NCBI GenBank assembly: GCA_036172245.1
Contig: JAYWIR010000130.1
Location: 61,474 to 81,473 of the forward strand
DNA length: 20,000 bases
Direction: 5' to 3'
DNA from: Raillietiella orientalis
Taxonomy: Eukaryota
The notes under the pieces are model-generated. The model worked only from the letters and a program-made list of their open reading frames with translations. It was not told the origin of the DNA and ran no database searches. Made by a program: the position numbers and the translations under genes. Shown here piece by piece: positions 2,396-20,000 of this stretch. Every line of letters starts with the position of its first letter. Position 1 is the first letter of the stretch.

Positions 2396-4145
2396 TCCTG
2401 GAAAAGCGGCTCTGCGGCGTCCTCCACCTGTTGGGGCGAGACGCTTAATGGAGCAGGAGGGACAGGTGCCTCGAGCACCTGGTCCCACTACTCCATCGGT
2501 GACGGGGCGTCGGGCGGGTCATCCTCCGGTTGGGTCGCGCCTAACTGTTGGCCCTCCTCCATAAGGGTGGGCTTTACAGGGTTTGCCCCGGCAAGGAGGA
2601 CTTCGTCCCCCTGCTCACCCTCCTCCATGGGGGTGACCTGCTCGACAACTTCCGCGCGTGGGATTTCCCCCTCCGGGATTCCCACGCGGCCGTCGGCTTC
2701 CTGCTTCTCCTCCTCGCTCGTGGAGGGGAAGCGCCTCCTCGGCTTTTGGGACTTGCGTCCCTTCTTCCGGGGGGTGCCTCCGACGAGGAGGATGCACTTC
2801 CGGACCCCAGGTCGCACTCACCTGCGGGGGCCTTCTTCGGCGGAGCCGGCCTGCGCAAGGCCTTGCGTGAGGAGTTCTCACGCTCGGCCAGCGTGGCCGC
2901 TAGCTCCTCCGCCGCCTGCGCGAACGCGGCGTCTTCGCTTTCGGCGCGCGCTTCGCGCGGCTCACCCTCTGTGCAAACAGAGGGTTCGTCGTCGCGAACC
3001 TCGGGCGCGGCGGAAACGGAGAGGGAAGGCTCGTCGCCCCGGGTGGCAGTCTCGGGAACGGCTATGCGCTCCAGTGCCACCGTACATTCCCGCATGGTCT
3101 TGGAGCGCGGCGCAGGTTCTTTCGCCTTGCCGGCTGTCTTGTTTACCGCTTTCGCGGGTTCTGCGGGGGGCACCTTTTTCTCCTTCCTGGCCTTGACAAG
3201 CTGCCAGCCGTTTTGAACTCCCGCGTATTCGTAAGGTTTTTCTTCCGACGCCAGTGTGGGAGGAACGGAGGCTAGCGGCTGCTGCCGGCGAGTATCTCTT
3301 TTTGGTCTTTCGACCACTTTTCCGCGTTTTGCCTGCGCTTTCTTTGCGGCAGGCGGCACCGGAGTAAGACGTTTAGGGCATAAGCGGCGCATGTGTCCCT
3401 TCTCCCCGTTTAAGTGGCACACAATGTTCGGGCACCGCTTGCGCAAGTGTCCTACTGCATTGCAGTAGCCACAAAAGCGGGGTTTCCCCACGTACCAGAG
3501 GTCTACGTCCTGGTCATTGACCTCTTGTTTGTGGGGAGGCCCACTATCCTTCTAAATGGTCACACGCGCGGCAGCCGGTTCTCCGAAAAGGCTATCGTAG
3601 CCATCGAAGATTGTGGCCTTTGGCCATAGCGCGTTAACATCGCCATATTTTCTTAACTGATCACCAACCGCAGACCGCGTCATGCGGCTGGTGATCCCTG
3701 TCAGATGGACCACTACGGAGGGTTCCATCGTGACTGGTAGGATCTTGCGTCCGTCCACGTTCAGCGGGGTGGTAATCAAGCTTTGCGCCAAGGTGATGTC
3801 CTTGCACACAACCTCGACGCGCTGACCCTTGCTGAGCACGGATAGACCGTCAAGATCCTTTTCTAACACGTTGGCGTTCTGCAACGCCCTCGAAAAAGCG
3901 CGTGCAGTTCGCCCATCAAAAAGGTTGCCTACCTTGTAGACTAGCAAGGGTTTATACCCCGTTTTCCTGTAGGCTTCCATCTCGGCCATGGCTTCAACGC
4001 TAGGCGCTGCCACCATGGCGCTCCATGACCTGGGCGTCGCCGGGGACGATTCCGGAGCGGATGCCCCTGATCCAGTAGGCTGTGGGGGAGAACAAGGATC
4101 ATCAACGCCTACTTCCATCGCGGTGTCCTCTGGCAACGCTGCCAT
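2392..4145 (-). pseudogene. Element A ORF1 (gag-like nucleic-acid-binding protein, two CCHC knuckles), disrupted
   Basis: Pieces 3552..4145 (MAALPEDTAMEVG...VVVHLTGITSRMTRSAVGDQLRKYGDV), 2574..3491 (CGYCNAVGHLRKRC-PNIV-CHLNGEKGHMRRLC) and 2488..2817 are collinear with G ORF1. Reading through the TAG at 2490-2488 continues to ...FQE-TGA at 2394-2392. Confidence 0.88.
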
Positions 4146-5432: not shown

Positions 5433-5780
5433 CTGGACTCGCCTTTTCGCGCGCAGTGTCTGCAAGTGGCGCCACTTATGCGCTCAAAGGACTCAGCTTG
5501 TGGGGATCCTTAATAGGATCTAGAAGACCTGTCCACGCCCAACGTGATCCCTACCCTGCCCTCCCACCCCTGAAACATCTGTTCCCCCCCCACTCACTTT
5601 TTAACTTTTTGTTTCTTTTTGTTTGTTATTTCCCATCCTCGCGCATTGGAAGGACATCACCGGCATTGAGCCGGCAACCAGCAAGCTGTTTTGGAGTAGT
5701 GGACCTTCGGATTCGCCACGCAACAATTAGTTGTATTTTTATTACACTGAAATGGATGCCCCGGCACATCCGGGTGTGAA
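5433..5780 (+). mobile_element. Piece B': last about 90 nt of ORF2 plus type III 3' UTR (same subfamily as I)
   Basis: Aligns with the reverse complement of 10330-10676. Stop TAG at 5521-5523, then C-rich and T-rich tracts, hairpins and terminal CCCGGCACATCCGGGTGTGAA. Confidence 0.88.
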
Positions 5781-8145: not shown

Positions 8146-8366
8146 TTATTACCCGGTTGCGACGGAACATTTATTAAAAAAACATCTGGGAACCGTGTTC
8201 CCAGGCAAGGGAACAAAAGATGGGGAGTAGATTCCCCGGCACGCAGGACGGGCACTCAGAGAGTACGGAACGGGGGGGAGGGGAAAATAAATAAATCAAT
8301 TGGGGAGGACGATGGGGATAGGCGTCTATAGTTCAGCCGTTCCTCTTCTCAGCCGCACCTGGATCC
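8146..8366 (-). mobile_element. Element E: very short 3' end (last ORF2 codons plus type II 3' UTR)
   Basis: Collinear with K 3' end (18132-18376): same hairpin series, AATAAA and degenerate terminal hairpin TCCGT-CGCAA-CCGGG-TAATAA. Confidence 0.8.
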
Positions 8367-8951
8367 TGCGTATGACAGTTGCGGGGAGAAGGAGTCGCTT
8401 CCCAACCTTATTGTCGATTGTGCTGCCCTCCGACCCCTTTGGGAACGGTTCGGGACGACCCTCGGGCTCCCTACGGGCAGCACACCCAGAGACGTTCTTC
8501 GGCCCCTCTTCGTGGAGGACGCACTGCAGCCAGCCGCAGCCATCGCAGCCTTGTGCTGCGTCCGTGGCTTCGTGGCGGCATGGAGCGCCGCCAACAACGA
8601 AGGAGTGAGTCCACAGGCGAGAAATGTCATCCCGTATGCACAACGCATCTTGCGGAGAGCTGCCGGATGGCCCAGCTTGGATATATGCGGAGAGACCTCG
8701 AGGGCTTTCTTCGAAGGATGGGCCCTCCTCACAGCGACCAGTGATACCTACCCTGCCCTCCAAACTCTTTTTGTATTTTATGTCTTTATTTTTCTTTTTG
8801 CTTCTTCCCCTCATCCCATTTCGCTCTCGGGGAGTGCCACGCCGGGCTGCGTCCCGGTGTCCTGACAGGTCCTGTGTTTACGGCCTTGCTGGGGCCTTGT
8901 ACCACGCATGTAGAGTTTATTAATAAACGCCCGGGCGCACCCCGATGATAA
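8361..8951 (+). mobile_element. Element F: 5'-truncated 3' end (degenerate ORF2 C-terminal zinc finger plus type I 3' UTR)
   Basis: DPAYDSCGEKESLPNLIVDCAALRPLW and IAALCCVRGFVAAWS...RMGPPHSDQ* match the J C-terminus. The 3' UTR aligns with 15864-16090. Confidence 0.88.
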
Positions 8952-10329: not shown

Positions 10330-13243
10330 TTCACACCCGGATGTGCCGGGGCATTAATTTCTTAAAAATAAAATAACAGAAAAATTGTCGCGTGGCGAAC
10401 CCGAAGGTTCACCACTCCAAAACAGCTTGCTGGTTACCGGCTCCGTGCCGAAGAGGTCCTTCCGATGCGCGGGGATGGGAAATAAAGAAAAACAAAAAGA
10501 AACAAAAAGTTCAAATGTGGGGGGGAACAAATGTTGTAGGGGTGGGAGGGCGGGGAAGGGATCACGGTGCGCGTGGAGAGGTCCTCTAGATCCTATACAG
10601 GATCCGCACAAGCTGAGTCCTTTCAGCGCCCAAGTGGCGCCACTTGCAGACACTTCGCGCGAAAACGCGAGTCCAGTGTAAGGCGTTGCCGGTTGGCTGA
10701 CGTCTTCTTCTGGTGGCGTTCCAGGCCGCCACGATCCCTCGAATGCAGCAGAGGACTGCTACAGAAGAGGGGGGGGACAAGGCGTCACAACGGAAGAGGA
10801 GCCTGAAAACGTCCTTAGGGCCGCATCCGCGCAAGTCCAGGATCGCCGTAAGGCGATCCCATAAAGGGCGGATGGCACTGCACTCGATGAGAATGTGAAG
10901 GAAGGTCTCTTTTTCCCCGCACCGGTCACAATAAGGATCCACAGCCCCCCGGGTTGTGCGATGAAGGCGTGCTTTGAATGGAAGTCCCCAGAGGACCACA
11001 AGCAACGCCACATCCTGCCATTTCAAGGGGAGGGATCCACTGTTTCAGGACGCCGGGGGCCACTTTATCTCCTCCGGAGATAGTCCGAGTAGCTCGCCCC
11101 AGCGTCGAATTCCGTTGGGCGGGACTCTCGGCGTCACAGCGTCCGCTAGCTGCCGAGATGTCCACGCCATAATCGTTTGTGTCCCGCCTCCAATCGTGCA
11201 GGACACGTTCCATTTTAAGCTCCCTACTGTCCCTGGCGTCGATGAGGGAGGGCAGCACTGGGGCAAGGGGGGTTATCAAAGCCCACATGCGCTTTCCGTG
11301 GGACTGCACGATCTTCTGCAGTTTCCAGCGGGCGTGCCTTTGCAGGAAAGTGTTTCTTGTGCCCGCCGAAACGAGGATCTTTACCCAGGTGGACACTGCC
11401 TCGTGCAGCCATGCAGAGTAGTTCCCTGGGCGGCAGAAGATTCAGTCGTTCACCCGTACCGCAACTTCCATGCGACGCAGGATTAAGCAGCCGTGTGCTT
11501 CTCTGCGGTCGCGTGCCAGCAGAAACGACAAAAGTCCGTCGAATCCGCAGGCATGTTTGGCCAGGAGGCGTGCTGGAACGCACCAAGGCGTGTCCTACAA
11601 TTCCGCCGCAAGGGCAAGAGTCCTGAATCTGAGTTGTAGTTCAATGCGCTCCAGCGTAAGAACGCCAAGTCCTCCGTCCTTACGTGGAGCGCACAAGTCT
11701 TTGAGCCTCACACGGGACATCGCTTTGCCCCAAAGGACTGTCCTCAGGAGGCCCGCTGCTCGTTTGCGGATGAAGTAAGGGGCGGGGCACACAAAAAGTA
11801 GGGGGCCAAGAAACGGGGGCCGCAAACGCGTTCCACACCTTGGCCCGTTCCTGGAAGTAGAACTTGCCTTCTTGGAACGGACCGATCGCCAACGCTGCCT
11901 TTTGGAGACGGTCGGACCAGGCTTCTGCTGCGCAGAAGTCCCCCAACGGTACGCCGAGGTACTTGAAGCACCTGCCCGTGGGGATCCCCAAGCGGATCCA
12001 GTCCGACCGTCCAGCCCAAACCGAACCGACGAAGACCATGGACGACTTCGCCCTGTTCACCTCCAGGCCCGTCCCGCGGCGCAGCAACTCGAAGAAATCT
12101 TTGAGCGCTGACGCCGGGGTGGACCGAAGGAGCAGGAGCACGAGGTCGTCGGCGTAGGTTGACACGGCAGGCGTGCCGGGACACGAGCTTGGCAGGGTTG
12201 ACAGAGTCTCCCTGTATGCCCTCAGCACCAGCTCGAAGTAGATGCTGAAGAGCATAGGGCTCAGACTGTCACCCTGCCTTTTGCCACGCCGAACCGGCAC
12301 GCCGTACACATGCCGGCCGCTAAAAGAGATGTTTATTAGAGCAAAGCGCCAGCAGGAGCGCAGGTAAGCCCGTAAGACGGCCGGGAATCCCAAGCGTTCC
12401 AGGAGCTCGAGAAGCAGTTCCTGGTCGACGCAATTGAACGCTTTACGCAGATCGACTGCGACCGCAAGGGCACCGGGCTCGGCTCTTCCATGATGGGCGC
12501 CCCCTCCCTGGTCAGACGAGAATCCAGGATTCTCTTGACCTCCCTGGTCTTCGCTTTGTTGCAACTGCCACCATGCTTCGTCCGGGAACAGCGTATGTCT
12601 GCTCCGGACTCACCACGGATTCCGCCACCCGTCCCAGTCGCTCAGCCCAAAGCTTGGCAAGCAACTACGCATACGCATTCACTACTGTGATGAAACGCCA
12701 GTTGCCTACGTTGCGATTGTCTCCTCCTTTCGGCAGGAAACGTACTCTAGCTGACCGGAACGATTTGAAGACGTCCCCTTGTTCTCGGATCAGCATGCTT
12801 AGCCGATGCACCAAGGGGGCCAGATCCGCCACGAAGCCTTGGTAGAACTCCGCGGGCAGACCGTCTTCCCCTGGTGCTTTTCTCTTTCGGAGCTTTCCGA
12901 TGGCGGAGACGATCTCCGCCATCGAGAAAGGCTGCGCGAGTTCATGTGCCTGCTCCTCCTGCAGCGCGGGAGCGCCTTGAGGCAGCAAGCGCTGCGCCAC
13001 GGCGTTCTCTGTTGTTCTACGCGCGTACAAGGAGGAGTAATAGTCCCGCAGGATGCGGTTTATTCTCGCCGGAGCTGAGCATTCTTGGCCTTGGGCGTCC
13101 AGCAAGCTGGGCGACCCGGATTGCCAGGTCTGTCGCTCAGCCCCAGCTTTATACTCCGCTAGGCGTCGAACGTCGGGAGTCCTAGAGTAAAGACCGGCGT
13201 GGTGGTATGCCCGGTCTTTCCTCTGCCCTTCGCGGAATGCCGG
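10330..13243 (-). mobile_element. Element I: ORF2 (linker, RT, C-terminal CCHC) plus type III 3' UTR; interrupted by J
   Basis: KAPGEDGLPAEFY, VDLRKAFNCV, RQGDSLSP, YADD, FKYLGV, CDRCGEKETFLHILIEC. Stop at 10586-10588. Terminal hairpin at 10336-10350. Confidence 0.92.
13230..13243 (+). repeat. Target-site duplication of J, left copy
   Basis: TCGCGGAATGCCGG here versus TCGCCGAATGCCGG at 16091-16104 (13 of 14 identical). Confidence 0.8.
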
Positions 13244-16090
13244 AGCCGAGCGACAAGCCTGGGAATCCGGGTCAGCCAGCATGCTGGATGACCTGGGTCG
13301 GGAACGTTCGTCCCCGTCTGCGGTACGGAATCTCGTGCGGTGTTTTTATTCCTCCCTTTACGCCAAAACGCCACCCGAACAAGACGCCTCGCGGCGATTG
13401 CTCATGAGTGGTTCCGTGGCGATAGGGGAGGAGGAGAGAGAATGCCTCGATGAGCCTTTCACGACCGGTGAAATTCTCGCCGGTATCAAAAGGCTCAAGA
13501 GGCGTAAGGCGCCAGGGAAGGACGGCTTGCCCGCGTTGTTCTTTCAGAGTTTCGCGGAAGAGCTGGCCCCCCTGGTGCTCGAGTTGACAAGGCGAATCCG
13601 AGACGAAGGCGATGTTCCCGCCTCATTTCGGTCAGCCAGGGTGAGGCTCCTCCCGAAGGGAGGAGTCCTCAGGAAACTTTGCAACTGGCGTCCGATCACG
13701 ATTGTGAACACGGACGCCAAGTTGATTGCCGGGCTGTGGGCGTCGCGATCGGGGAAGGTGTCCAATTCCATAATTAGCCCGGAGCAGACATACGCTGTTC
13801 CCGGGCGAAGTATGGAGGACAACCTCTTCTTCGCGAGCACATGGATGCACGCGCAGCGGAGTAATAAAGAAGGGAAAGGGAAAATTTGCAACCCTACTTT
13901 GGGGCCGCCAGTGGGACAGGGTAGGGACCCTCATGCGGGAAAGGGGGCCTTAGCGATCGCAGTCGACCTCCATAAGGCATTCGACTGTGTTGACCAGGAA
14001 CTCCTCTTGGAGCTCCTGGGTCGCATGGGCTTCCCACCCTCCTTGATTACCTACCTGCGCTCTTGCTGGCGGAACGCGATAATCTCAATTACTTTCAGTG
14101 GACAAAAGGTGTATGGCGTGCCGGTGCGGCGGGGCATAAGGCAGGGCGACAGCCTCAGCCCCCTGCTGTTTAGCACCTACGCGGAGTTGGTGCTGAGAGC
14201 GTACAGGGTGACTTTGGCCCCCTTGCCGAGCTCGTGCCCCGGCACGCCAGCCGTAGAAGCGTATGCCGACGATCTTCTGCTCCTCTTACCTATGTCCACC
14301 CCGGCGAAGGCGGTCGGAGATTTCTTCGACCTGCTTAGCCGTGGGGCCGGATTACAGGTTAACAGGGCAAAGTCGTCAGTGTTAGCAGTTGGAGAGACGT
14401 GGGCAGGACAGCAGGACTGGGTCCGTCTGGGGATCTTCACGGTGAGGTGCATCAAGTACCTCGGTGTGCTGTTGGGGGACTTCTCTCCTGCGGAAGCGTG
14501 GTCCAGCTGCCTCCAAAAAGTCGAGACGGCGATCGACCCGTTCCTGGAAGGCAAGTTTCACTTGCCGGAACGGGCCGCGGTTTGGAACGCCTTCGCGGCT
14601 TCCATCCTCCGCCCCTTGCTTTTTGTTTGCCCCGCCCCCGTGGAATCAAAAAAGCGTACGAAGGACCTCCTGCGCATAGCTCTTTGGGGCAAGGGGAGGC
14701 CCCGAGTCCCTTTGAAGTACTTGTGCGCTCCGCGTCGGGACGGCGGTCTCAGCATCCTGACGCTGAAGCGTGTGGAAATCCAGCTGCTATGGCGTAACCT
14801 CGCCATCGCAGCGAAGATGTGGAGCACCGCTTGGTACATTCCTGCCCGCCTCCTGGCCAGGCGTGTGTCCCGCTGCGAAGGACTCGCATCGTTTCTTCTG
14901 TGCCCTGGCCGGAAGATTCGAAGATGCGGTCTACTGCTCGGCCGCAGGGCAACCCTGGCAAAGGAGAACGACTGGATGGTTTGTGGCCCTGCCAACTCCT
15001 CCGCTTGGCTGGAAGAGACTGCTGGCACCTGGGCCAAGCTGAACCAGAGGTGCGAAGACCAGATGAACTGCCTGCGAGTCGGCTTTTACGCCCGCCGAAC
15101 TCTCCGTGAAATACTTGAATTTCCCCCGAGTTGCACGTGGGCGGAAAGCACACCCCTTGTTACGGCGATGCCCTTCCTCTAAAGGGCGCTTCACGAAAGC
15201 CGGAAGCCAAGGTGGCAAGTCTGCTGCCGTATCGCAGGCAGAGAGAAGACGATGAGCGGCTGGACCATGGGGGAGTTGACAGATGCAACGACCCCTGGTA
15301 TCCTGCCGCGTGGATTAAGAAGATGGAGCGAGCTGCTCCGCATTTGATTGGATGACCTGAAGTGGCCCTCGGTTCTACTTGGATCCAGGATTCTTCCCCT
15401 GAAGTGGCAAGAATCGGCGCTTCTGTGGCTGCATTGAGGTCTACCCTGCAACGCGCGCCGCTTCCACTGGACGCGGGGAAGAGTAAATCCTGCGTGTGCC
15501 AGGTGTGGGGAGCGGGTGTCGCTCCCCCACCTCTTAATTGAATGCCCTGCCGTCCGGATTCTTTGGAAACGTCTTCAAACGGCACTTGGGATACCGGATG
15601 CTGGCAATGGTGGATGTATCTTCAGTCTTGTCTTCGTGCGGGACGCCCTCAGTCCAGCTGCAGCCCTGGCAGCACTTTGCTGCATTCGTGGTATAGTGGC
15701 GGCCTGGAGTGATGCCGAAGATGAAGACTGCATCGTGAGGAATGTCATCGAGTATGCTTCTCGCTTCCTGCAGAGAGCTACCCGATGGACCCATCTAGGA
15801 AGGATGAAAAACGAACTAGAAGGCATCCTGCAAAGGATGGGCCCTCCTAGCAGTTCTCTGTGATCCCTTCCCGGCCCTCCAAACTTTTTTTTTTTGTGGT
15901 TTGTTTTTCTCTTTTATTTTATTTTTGTGTTCTCCCCCATCCCCCTCCACTGCTGAGGAGAGCCACACCGAGCTGCGTCCCGGTGTCCCGGCAGTTCCGG
16001 TTTTGCGTGGCCGTCAGTGGGGCCTTGTACCACGTTCTGTATTGACCGTTGAAATGTTTTTAATAAACGTCCCGGCGTATTTGGGTGGCA
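13244..16090 (+). mobile_element. Element J: 5'-truncated insertion (about 2.85 kb) with TSD, antisense within I; type I 3' UTR
   Basis: Flanked by TCGC(G/C)GAATGCCGG. Contains RT, C-terminal CARCGERVSLPHLLIEC, stop at 15861-15863, AATAAA and terminal hairpin. Confidence 0.93.
13281..15863 (+). pseudogene. Element J ORF2: uninterrupted 633-aa stretch covering the whole RT domain, then a disrupted C-terminus
   Basis: KAPGKDGLP, NWRPITIVNTDAKL, VDLHKAFDCV, GIRQGDSLSPLLF, YADD (14262-14273), IKYLGV, RRDGGLSI. First stop at 15180-15182. No endonuclease because of 5' truncation. Confidence 0.93.
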
Positions 16091-16104
16091 TCGCCGAATG
16101 CCGG
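16091..16104 (+). repeat. Target-site duplication of J, right copy
   Basis: TCGCCGAATGCCGG directly follows the J tail GGGTGGCA. Confidence 0.8.
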
Positions 16105-16207: not shown

Positions 16208-17942
16208 ATGGCAGTTGTGCCAGAGGACACCGCGATGGATGTAGTTGTGGGGGAGGCAAGTCCTCCCACATGACGTACAGCTATGGGGGCAATAGTCCCT
16301 GGAACGTCTTCGCAGTCGGCGAAGAATTGGAGTGAAATGGTCGCCGCCCCCAGTGCGGAGGCCATGGCCGAGGAAGCCGCCTATGGGGCCTCTAAATACA
16401 AACCATCGCTTGTATACAAGGTAGGCCCTTTGTTTGAAGGAAACACGGCGCGCTCCTTCAGCAGTGCGCTTCAAAATGCTAATGTCCGTGAGGAAGATCT
16501 GGAAGGTCTGTGCGTGCTCAGCGGGGCGCAGCGGGTTGTGCTGGTGTGCTAGAGCATCAGCCTAGCCGATCGCCTTATAAATACCCCGCTGATCATGGAC
16601 GGCCGAAAGATCTTCCCGGTGTCAATGGACCACTCGGTTGTGGTCCACTTGACAGGAATATCCAAGCGCATGACGCGCACTGCAGTGAAGGACGAATTAA
16701 GCAAGTACCGGGACGTACACGCGCTGTGGCCGAAGCCCACAATCTTTGAGGGCTACGGACGCCACTTCGGGGGCCTCGCCGCGGCACGTGTAACCCCAAA
16801 AGACGAAGCGAAGCTACCCCACAAACTTGAGGTCGCGGGAGAACCGGAAGACCTCTGGTATGCGGGCAAGTTACGGTATTGCGGCTACTGCGATGCGGTC
16901 GGACACATCCGAAAGAGGTGCCCAAACATCGTATGCTACTTGTGCGGGAAGAAGGGACACGTCCGTCGCGTGTGCCCTAAACGCCCCACCCCGATTCCCT
17001 CGGCCGCCAAAAAGGGAGAAAGAAAAATTGGAGAACCGTAAAACTGGCCGAGAAAAGCTGCCAATAACCCAAGCTCCCAGCGCGGCATCGGAAAAAAACC
17101 TTCCCAAGACCGCAGAGAGAGAACAGGGCTGGCAGCTAGTCAAAGCCAAAAAAGAGAAAAAGGACAAGCATGTCCCGAAGAAAGGAGAGAAGGCGGCGGC
17201 CGGAACAAAAGCTAAATCCGTGTCGCGCGTAAAAACTTTCCGAGAATGCACGGTTACGCTGGAGCGCATTGACGTTCCCGCCGACGCCACCGCAGGCGAT
17301 ACGGCTTCGATCGATTTTCCCGCCGCCACAAATGCGCGCGAAAACCCACCCCTTGCTTGCGAAGAGGTTCAGCCGGACGACAAAATCGCCGAAACGGAGG
17401 ACGCAGCCTTCGAGAAGACCGCGGAGGAGCTCGCGGCAACGCTTGCCGAACGCGAGAACCCTTCGCGAAAGGGGTTGCGTAGGCCGGCAGCGGCTAAAAT
17501 GGCCCCCGCATGTGAGTCGGACCGGGAGGCCGGAAGTGCATCCTCCTCTGCGGAAGCACCATCAAGGAAAGCGGGGCAAAAATCCCAGAAACCCCGAAGG
17601 TGCATTCCGCCTCCGCGCGAGGGGGATCCAATGGAGAAGGAAACAGTGGATGAGAGCGTAGGAGCCCATGTCGGGCATCACCCACGTGCGGAAGCCGACG
17701 AGAAGGCGACTCCAATGGAGGAGGGTAACCAGGGGTCAGCAATGCCCTCTGAAACCGCCGAACCTGAACCACCCGCACCAATGGACGTGGGCCAACAGGT
17801 ACGAACAACACCTCCTTCGCACGGGCAGCCGGAGACGTCGGCACGTAAGAAGGATGGGGAGTTGGTGGGCAAGACGCCAACCCCGTCCAGCGATTAGCCC
17901 CAAGAGGTGGCAGGAGCACCACCGCCAGGTTCCCAGGAATAA
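16208..17942 (+). pseudogene. Element G ORF1 (gag-like, two CCHC knuckles), disrupted
   Basis: ATG 16208 (MAVVPEDTAMDV). In-frame stops near 16271, at 16550 and at 17895; frameshift near 17020. CGYCDAVGHIRKRC-PNIV-CYLCGKKGHVRRVC. Inferred ancestral end ...SQE-TAA at 17940-17942. Confidence 0.88.
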
Positions 17943-18117: not shown

Positions 18118-18131
18118 GGGAGGGCGGTTGT
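18118..18131 (+). repeat. Target-site duplication of K, left copy
   Basis: GGGAGGGCGGTTGT, identical to 19288-19301. Confidence 0.92.
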
Positions 18132-18161
18132 TTGTCACCCGGGTGCGCCGGGGCGTTTATT
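18132..18161 (-). terminator. Conserved 3'-terminal motif (AATAAA plus CCCGG-N5-CCGGG hairpin); representative of six copies, function inferred
   Basis: Other copies near 5751-5780 (+), 8146-8175 (-), 8922-8951 (+), 10330-10360 (-) and 16062-16090 (+). Confidence 0.6.
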
Positions 18162-19287
18162 ATAAACTATCCGGGAACAGGGTTCCCGGACAAAGGGGAA
18201 AACAAGAGACGAAGGGGGTGGGATCCCCGACACGCAGGTCGGTATGCCGAAAGTCCGGAACGGTAGGGAAGGGACCACAAACACACTACTATATAAAAAA
18301 ATAAAAGAAAAATATGGAGGGCAGGGGACAGGGGTCTTTGGTAAATCCGTTCCTTCCTTTCAACACCGGCGATGGATGCCGGCGATCTCTCTCCTTACGC
18401 CCTGTGGCAGATGGGTTCACTGGGCAGCAAACGACATGTTTGCGCTGGCTAATCCGGTGGGCTGACAAAGGATGGCCAGCTTCTCCAACTCTCGGTGGGC
18501 CTTGTCGATGGCGCGGGTGCAACACACGGTTGCAACGACAGCACCCAATGACAGGCCGCCTGGCGTGAAGAAGCGGCGCATCAACTTCCTCGCGGTGTCC
18601 CCCTGGTGCAGGAGAGCTGAGGCCAGCCTCCGGCAGAGTCCTAGAAGGGCACCGCAGTCCAGGAGCAGGTGCGGGAGCGTTTCCACTTCCCCGCACCGCT
18701 TACAGTTTGGGGAGACGACTCCCCCGGAAACAAGGTTCGTGCGCTGGTTGGAGTGAAAACCCCAATGCACCATCATAATCACATCCTGCTTCCACGAAAG
18801 GGGGAACACAGAAGTGTTCAGACACGAGGGAGGAACCACAAGTTCTTCAAGGGGCACACTCAAGTGTTCGCTCCACCGAAGAAGTCCCTTCGGAACGTGG
18901 CGAGGCGTGGCGGCGTCCGCCAGCTCGCAAGTCTTACAGCCGCCAATAGGTCGCGTTGTTCCTGCGATGGTGCAGGCGACCTCCCATCTCGCCGGTTCGC
19001 AACTGTCATCTCTTGCCCTGAGGGCTGACAGCGCGTCTTCGAGGGGGGTGACGGCCAGGCGGGTCCACTTCTCCTGGCTGTTGCACACCTCATCCACCGT
19101 GCAGTACGGGGAGAGGTGAGCGCAACGGAGTTCCAGGAGGGAAACATCCTGGTGCTTTGCCCAGCCATGCAACGATTCCTGCCGCCAGGCTTGAAAGTTC
19201 GTTGGGCGGCAGGAGATCCATTCCTGGGCTTCCAGGAGCCGATACAGCGGTTTCAAGGGGAAACCGAAGCTTCTGGTGGCGCGCTTG
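18132..19287 (-). mobile_element. Element K: 5'-truncated insertion (1156 bp; ORF2 C-terminus plus type II 3' UTR), antisense within the G endonuclease
   Basis: ORF 18417..19256 contains CKRCGEVETLPHLLLDC. Ends AATAAA-CGC-CCCGG-CGCAC-CCGGG-TGACAA. Perfect 14-bp TSD. Confidence 0.94.
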
Positions 19288-19301
19288 GGGAGGGCGGTTG
19301 T
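19288..19301 (+). repeat. Target-site duplication of K, right copy
   Basis: GGGAGGGCGGTTGT. Removing K and one copy restores IAGGRLYWRCG, as in A. Confidence 0.92.
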
Positions 19302-20000
19302 ACTGGCGATGCGGCGCCCGCAACACTTGTGTGGTCGCGTTCTTCCTAAAGCCAGCCATTAACGTGGCCGTGAAGGACGTGCGCTTTGGGGACGACGGAC
19401 GGATCGGCGAACTGATTCTCAGATGGTCCGATTCGATCGACCTCATAGTCACCAATGTGTACGCTCCTAGCGGTAAACAGGGACACCAGCAGCGCAACGC
19501 GTTACTGGAAACCTTAAAGCGCGAATGGCTGGTGGACGAGGACGTGCGAAAGGCGCATCTGATATCAGGGGATTTCAACGTCCGTCTGCTATCAGATCAG
19601 CCCGGAGCACAGGGGAACGCGATCAACAAGTTGTGCGCCGCCATGCGCGCGCGCAACTTGTTGACAGAAATAAGCGGGATGGTCAACAGCGTGGACCACG
19701 TCTTCCTCGACGAAGACCTGTGCACACGGGTCGGAAAACGAGGGACACTTGGATCGACGCTGTCGGACCATTCCCGGTTAGTATTCGAGATGCGCCCGCG
19801 CGACAAAAAACCGCCATCCAGGGATTGGCGTATGCCAGTGGACTGGCCGCGCCTGTCAGGAGCAAAAGAAAATTTTCGCGAATTCCTGCGAGGCGTCACC
19901 CTCTAGAGTCTCGCGGATAGGGACCTATTTAAGGAATCGGTCCGGGAGTTCTGCGAACAGTTCCCAGTGCAACGTCTGCCCCGGGGATTCGGCGTTATCA

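Follow-up and report, generated by a model that had tools for sequence, protein, structure and literature searches.

LINEs of an L1/Tx1-like lineage in the genome of Raillietiella orientalis end at a fixed distance past a conserved terminal motif that belongs to the element itself; resolved copies carry neither poly(A) tails nor 3' transductions, and A-tailed copies are rare. The motif is best read as a recognition or end-defining signal, and this part of an earlier note on the same DNA, which had proposed a stringent-type RT recognition or 3'-processing signal, is retained; covariation of the terminal stem did not bear the proposal out.

A LINE nest and its terminal modules

The window, a stretch of 20,000 nucleotides at the end of a contig in a 210-Mb genome, consists of nested non-LTR retrotransposon fragments on both strands, in which Exo_endo_phos, RVT_1 and zf-CCHC domains were matched and zf-RVT gave a weak, sub-threshold match. 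The elements show the features of the L1/Tx1 group: an ORF1 and an ORF2 with APE endonuclease, RT and C-terminal zinc motif, target-site duplications (11-18 bp) and 5' truncation, with inserts between 61 and 5,904 nt long. ORF2 frames are open over approximately 1,200 aa in genomic copies. The best solved relative of the RT is human L1 ORF2p (E 8.5e-39, versus 2.9e-14 for R2, in a comparison without an L2, CR1 or RTE outgroup), and the closest database proteins are 24-34% identical (39 homologues among 8,000 candidates scored). The L1/Tx1-like affinity proposed earlier agrees with the domain set and with human L1 as best RT relative. In a quick RT tree of 43 rows with no named Tx1 reference, four RT domains of these elements formed a single long-branch clade of unsettled placement. 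ORF2 proteins of the K type and the J-like type are about 52% identical. In several J-like ORF2 frames (starts of L137, L135, L136 and L138; window position 17891) the ATG is missing that the window's copy has at about 2395 (minus strand); ORF2 may start by re-initiation or at a non-ATG codon.

The six 3' ends described for the window were all found as written and where they had been placed. The terminal modules and associated features are as follows (stem arms, loop and tail separated by hyphens).

18132..18161, minus strand: K terminal module, AATAAA, CGC, 5-bp stem, loop CGCAC and 6-nt tail TGACAA (CCCGG-CGCAC-CCGGG-TGACAA)
18132..19287, minus strand: element K, 5'-truncated, ORF2 C-terminus and 3' UTR
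18118..18131, no strand: K target-site duplication, 3' copy, 14 bp
19288..19301, no strand: K target-site duplication, 5' copy, 14 bp
16062..16090, plus strand: J terminal module, tail TGGCA, next T possibly element-encoded (CCCGG-CGTAT-TTGGG-TGGCA)
16091..16104, no strand: J target-site duplication, 3' copy, 14 bp
13230..13243, no strand: J target-site duplication, 5' copy with one mismatch, located in the codons of element I for the EN-RT linker
8922..8951, plus strand: F terminal module (CCGGG-CGCAC-CCCGA-TGATAA)
8146..8175, minus strand: E terminal module, stem decayed (TCCGT-CGCAA-CCGGG-TAATAA)
10330..10359, minus strand: I terminal module, AATTAA variant (CCCGG-CACAT-CCGGG-TGTGAA)
5751..5780, plus strand: B' terminal module, decayed hexamer AATGGA (CCCGG-CACAT-CCGGG-TGTGAA)
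19995..20000, minus strand: candidate seventh 3' end, with tail TGATAA and then the residue-310 target

Read on the minus strand, the K module runs from AATAAA (18161-18156) through CGC, CCCGG (18152-18148), the loop CGCAC and CCGGG (18142-18138) to TGACAA (18137-18132). AATAAA lies 3 nt upstream of the stem in four of the six ends (K, J, F and E), as noted before; the hexamer is AATTAA in I and AATGGA in B'. Positions 19995-20000 are a probable seventh 3' end, whose hairpin would fall beyond the end of the contig. The K and J duplications start 6 and 5 nt past the stem, respectively, in line with the earlier description. A convincing duplication was not found within the window for B', I or E, and F has only a doubtful candidate of 8-10 bp.

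K is inserted antisense into the endonuclease of a related LINE, at about residue 80, and this site recurs: 27 of 45 K insertions lie antisense at about residue 80 of relatives' ORF2. The J family (14/30) and the family with a 6-bp stem (6/8) are found antisense at about residue 310 of relatives' ORF2, and another family at about residue 500 of a sibling ORF2 (3/3). Overall, 68 insertions are antisense and 14 sense, some of which may be segmental duplicates. The window holds sibling-LINE insertions at 18118-19301, 13230-16104 and 19990-20000.

Occurrence of the motif and the position of the end

Across the 210 Mb of the genome, AATAAA-YGY-stem-loop-T(G) ends number at least 1,659, compared with 5 matches in the controls. 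The pattern AATAAA-YGY-N5-CRYA-N6-TG, which leaves the stem free, has 1,465 matches versus 5 for the reversed control, and a form with a 6-bp stem and a 4-nt loop adds 194, versus 0 in the control. Loci were also collected by ORF2 protein, independently of the motif, with a J and a K query (30 loci each, the window's own copies included). The motif ends 29 of the 30 loci for either query (58/60), the two misses having an interrupted UTR, and the hexamer keeps its canonical spacing in most of these copies. In a second sample of 31 loci, hand-picked for diversity out of 134 zf-RVT matches, 24 have the motif; one of the others is a false match (L216), two are decayed by eye and four are interrupted. 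Among the pooled ends, 154 of 179 lie in sense direction downstream of an ORF2 C-terminus, and the 25 that lack ORF2 homology resemble, by eye, truncated or decayed UTRs.

The motif is common to 108 UTR clusters and to families only about 52% identical in ORF2, so it is old within this lineage. A 3' terminal sequence is thus kept across diverged families, as in stringent LINEs. No partner SINE with the same tail was recognised among the 179 pooled ends; relaxed ARAGORN matches for the J family lie 1.3-1.4 kb upstream, within ORF2. A metagenome search gave 13 matches, none near an ORF2 homologue. Several of the metagenome loci (L199, L200, L202, L204, L205, L209 and L210) share a recurring sequence with the terminal pattern alone and no LINE protein nearby, probably an unrelated prokaryotic element. 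Look-alike windows were not seen in the other genomes compared. In the literature searched, neither this motif nor a tail-less end at a fixed position is described for any L1/Tx1 family of animals; Repbase and subscription journals may hold a case.

The position of the end was examined in 205 pooled ends (one of them the false match L216), of which 146 had a mappable 5' boundary and were tested for duplications. Duplications were found in only 28, or 26 after two tandem artefacts were dropped, versus 0 of 438 random windows. They start 5-6 nt past the stem in 25 of 26 cases, and a distance of exactly 6 nt would fit 22 of the 26. In the outlier, L157, the first base pair is probably mutated. 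The three 5-nt cases are J copies with a T as sixth base; L042 retains this T where its target has C, which argues that the apparent 5 nt of J are probably 6. Family tails vary in sequence (TGAAAA, TGACAA, TGTAAA, TGTCAA, TGCAAA) but not in length. The J family, with its 5-bp stem, and the 6-bp-stem family have the target core CGCCG in common. In both (a comparison that includes L135) the core starts with the seventh base after the stem, even though the 6-bp-stem family has its hexamer one base further upstream; it is therefore the stem or its 3' arm, and not the hexamer, that sets the place of the end. Six duplications (L154, L184, L134, L160, L144 and L166) open with C, G or T immediately behind a tail whose last base is A, which shows that A-T pairing is dispensable. 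No 3' transduction was found in resolved copies. The motif lies inside the target-site duplications and is therefore part of the element, which contradicts the reading, raised earlier as a possible refutation, that it is a host target sequence.

That the ends lack poly(A) holds for the DNA copies in general, with the exception of rare copies in which A12-A15 follows three bases past the stem. No A tail was found among the 58 and 24 protein-collected motif ends, and the longest A run after the 24 is of 5; young copies lack poly(A), whose presence there would have spoken against the proposal. Three distinct sites have the stem followed by A7. When the search for A tails left the stem out, 12 distinct sites appeared against 18 control rows; of the 12, one is L038 again, another (L233) shows the motif clearly, and in two the motif may have decayed. 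An A7-A15 tail therefore occurs in at most 6 sites against at least 1,659 ends, which is not the pattern of a relaxed, mammalian-type L1. One of the tailed copies, L031 (C6, approximately 5698611-5698643), is a micro-insertion of hairpin, TGT and A12 within an 11-bp duplication that shares ATAAA with the hexamer, and it is the only one whose adjacent duplication rules out that the As are target DNA. L038 has TGT and A15 at 21 nt past AATAAA, an ordinary spacing for a poly(A) site, and no adjacent duplication. These copies suggest that the element RNA can probably be polyadenylated at the motif, and we infer that the tail is normally left uncopied.

Some ends depart from the common arrangement in other ways. 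A second 6-bp-stem group (C2:3859967, C9:4133815, C10:4310097 and others) has the loop ATTA or ATCA instead of CGTA. Two terminal modules stand in tandem, 80-120 nt apart, in L086 (locus 2595-2740) and L043 (locus 3160-3267); in L086 the UTR carries its final 120 nt twice, resembling the product of a template switch or a re-insertion.

Predicted structure in the 3' UTR

Two features that had been taken as support for a terminal stem did not hold up. The C-G to G-C change of F, described as compensatory, has a single match in the genome, F itself, and a compensatory subfamily was therefore rejected; the F UTR matches copies carrying the 6-bp stem, and F is likely a decayed copy of that family. 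The TTGGG arm of J, whose G-U pairs were said to keep the stem, is private to the window copy among 29 J-query ends and differs from most J copies by two C-to-T changes. Covariation, by which the stem was to be judged, is not apparent either: in an alignment of 105 rows (99 distinct), two-sided changes number 3 versus 2.4 in shuffled alignments, and 226 of 500 shuffles are as high. An alternative register that uses YGY and TG was rejected, as it shows no covariation either, and RNAalifold found no consensus structure in the terminal ends. Near-invariant pairs, however, say little for or against pairing. The drawn pairs have a mean pairing probability of about 0.3 in a 100-nt context, the best fold of the isolated K module uses a different register, and the changes in the arms mostly resemble CpG-type decay. 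Among 165 ends, 27 loop sequences stand between near-invariant complementary arms. The G before the stem, the TG after it and the first loop C are about as invariant as the arms, and a C-A mismatch recurs at the stem base (10/165). The 6-bp-stem family, with its one-base insertion, gains a pair and has several 4-nt loops in 194 copies. The variable loop, the invariant arms and this 6-bp variant lend the terminal stem weaker support, by its pattern of variation, than a covarying helix would have.

Further upstream, the UTRs contain two predicted hairpins, H1 and H2.

18227..18242, minus strand: K H1, predicted, 5-bp stem, loop CTGCGT at 18232-18237
18170..18190, minus strand: K H2, predicted, at least 9 bp, 3-nt loop
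15973..15978, plus strand: J H1 loop CTGCGT, mismatch beside the loop in the window copy
8840..8859, plus strand: F H1, predicted, 7 pairs around CTGCGT at 8847-8852
8241-8246, minus strand: E H1 loop
8186-8204, minus strand: E H2
10392-10415, minus strand: I H2
5699-5719, plus strand: B' H2

The six ends had been assigned to three otherwise different UTR types; K, J, F and E share the upstream CTGCGT loop, whereas B' and I do differ there. H1, with the loop CTGCG(T) approximately 90-165 nt from the end, has the exact loop in 54 of 108 cluster representatives, two of which are false matches. In an alignment of 52 rows (two K duplicates dropped, the two false matches kept), H1 shows 30 two-sided changes versus 12.8 in shuffled alignments (0/500), and slid controls are all lower; the two measures least sensitive to relatedness are not significant (77/500 and 37/500). 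On a tree of 50 rows, about 6 of the 12-13 changes in the loop-closing pair are co-changes, a score that 2 of 75 control column pairs also reach; a further pair does equally well, and three of the six pairs have no co-change. The K H1 is absent from the whole-UTR fold. These results give moderate support to H1 as a putative covarying hairpin. H2 is clear in several families, and z is below -2 in 31% of the 108 representatives versus 16% of 96 controls, a weak indication that H2 may be an unusually stable hairpin overall; whole-UTR folds are not unusually stable (z of -1.8 and -0.7). In 17 of the 87 representatives compared (4.5 expected; 0/200 shuffles), a U-rich stretch further upstream could pair with AATAAAY along its full length, and this helix thus holds for a minority of families. 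A kissing interaction between the H1 loop and the terminal loop was rejected: the second loop base is A in 23 and G in 25 of the CTGCG representatives, with no dependence.

No Rfam family matched within the window at gathering threshold. The histone genes of this genome close with a stem-loop of the canonical type, as is typical of animals, and so point to an animal host; the H2B looks arthropod-like. Sequence mimicry of the histone stem-loop, whose consensus has a 6-bp stem and a 4-nt loop, was also rejected: the host's own version has another sequence and a loop of another size, and none of the histone genes examined is followed by the LINE motif. Several of the clustered histone H3/H4 copies (L104, L105, L107 and L115) are frameshifted, which suggests assembly indel errors or pseudogenes.

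Readings of the end and known LINE systems

The reading that we prefer, and to which we give an even chance, is that ORF2p binds a 3' UTR with secondary structure and begins cDNA synthesis at a set distance from the terminal motif, where an uncopied poly(A) tail would begin. AAUAAA would direct cleavage and polyadenylation just past the motif, and the tail would probably be present on the RNA but left uncopied. ORF2p would engage the 3' UTR by putative binding to H1 or the terminal motif; the latter, if it folds as drawn, would set the start of cDNA synthesis at +6. The endonuclease would supply a family-specific nick, and priming would need little or no pairing with the nicked target. A bolder version, possible but on the whole doubtful, is that ORF2p of these elements, as a deep L1/Tx1 lineage of animals, ignores the tail of a polyadenylated RNA, the terminal hairpin serving as a 6-nt ruler without primer pairing and the upstream CUGCGU-loop hairpin as an identity tag.

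The main rival places the end in the template: the RNA itself would stop 6 nt past the stem, through cleavage without polyadenylation or deadenylation down to the footprint of a hairpin-bound protein, and the RT would start at the RNA end. It predicts the same DNA ends and the same stem-anchored distance, and DNA cannot separate it from the preferred reading. The AATAAAY helix (17/87 versus 4.5 expected) could moreover mask the poly(A) signal in some families; however, this helix is missing from most families, the hexamer stands at canonical spacing in most protein-collected copies, and A-tailed copies exist at the motif. A histone-like logic is further disfavoured by the different host histone stem-loop and by the lack of the LINE motif behind every histone gene examined. 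We regard this rival as rather unlikely. It is improbable that the module is read mainly as sequence, as two CCGG boxes at fixed spacing and a TG, with incidental pairing and the real structure residing in H1 and H2. The near-equal invariance of arms and flanks, the terminal stem without covariation, the recurrent C-A mismatch (10/165) and the two competing folds would fit this, but variation is free in the loop and not in the arms, and the family with a one-base insertion gains a pair while tolerating varied loops.

In R1 and R2, read-through transcript that extends into the flank pairs with the nicked target and primes reverse transcription. Were the LINEs studied here to do so, with the hairpin secondary, the strong family target preferences (27/45 for K, 14/30 for J, 6/8 for the 6-bp-stem family) would mean that donor flank and new target often match. 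Insertions at unrelated sites nevertheless have the same end position, bring no donor flank along and lie in exact duplications, and A-tailed copies put the RNA end at the motif, which makes read-through priming highly improbable. That the motif is a host target sequence, or an artefact of assembly or chance, might be suspected from the insertion of elements into each other and from frameshift-like errors in some histone copies of the assembly; its place inside duplications, its sense direction after the ORF2 C-terminus in 154 of 179 ends and its 1,465 matches versus 5 in the control leave this a negligible chance.

If a fixed-distance start is correct, the general strategy is already known from other LINEs, though uncommon among the L1 relatives of animals. 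For maize (LINE1-1_ZM, 'monocot 1a') and Chlamydomonas (L1-1_CR), stringent lineages of the L1 clade with a hairpin at the 3' end have been proposed (Ohshima 2012, PMC3472496), and L1 families without a 3' repeat number 9 of 233 in flowering plants and 5 of 15 in green algae (PMC3472496). Like the present elements, LINE1-1_ZM and L1-1_CR are L1-clade LINEs with a conserved 3' end and a predicted hairpin, but those lineages have partner SINEs, a covarying stem and a conserved flank and loop, and L1-1_CR ends in poly(A) (PMC3472496). Here the host is an animal, an invariant stem encloses a variable loop, no partner SINE turned up among the 179 pooled ends, and copies stop at +6 without a repeat. 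The present elements would resemble stringent LINEs in working and are candidate members of that class.

L2 ORF2 binds its cognate stem-loop (Hayashi 2014, PMC4176376), and in ZfL2-1, ZfL2-2 and UnaL2 a 3' stem-loop is needed for mobility, the stem being read generally and the loop specifically (PMC4176376, PMC3747384). Such reading would fit the variable terminal loop or the conserved H1 loop. Those elements, however, belong to another clade with proven binding, whereas binding is putative in the present ones, and UnaL2 ends in TGTAA repeats. SART1, as cited in PMC3472496, likewise needs 3' UTR motifs for retrotransposition and starts reverse transcription precisely, but it is of the R1 clade and ends in poly(A). 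For human ORF2p, Thawani 2024 (PMC10830416) reports that a stem-loop influences the start of reverse transcription and that about 20 A are needed, 15 single-stranded and 5 paired, with A tails left in the copies; in the present elements, with their 6-nt spacer and almost no tails, the geometry must be a different one. If true, the 6-nt ruler would be a natural short-ruler counterpart of this requirement of about 20 nt and a testable model for the transition from stringent to relaxed LINEs. Whether recognition of the RNA end was ancestral in the L1 clade and was replaced by recognition of poly(A) is a question posed in PMC3472496. On this question the genome provides, for an animal lineage, well over 1,000 copies, many families and open ORF2 frames, and from the exact rule for the end the effect of spacer and stem mutants can be predicted sharply.

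The available part of Kojima 2015 (PMC4494074) describes Tx1-clade LINEs that target other transposons, namely Tx1 in Tx1D and Tx1-Mar in Mariner-N4_AMi, and contains no description of such a 3' end for target-specific Tx1 LINEs. The LINEs of R. orientalis share with them a preference for other mobile elements as targets, the insertions often standing in tandem about a single duplication; unlike the targets of Tx1 and Tx1-Mar given there, those of the present elements are coding motifs of sibling LINEs.
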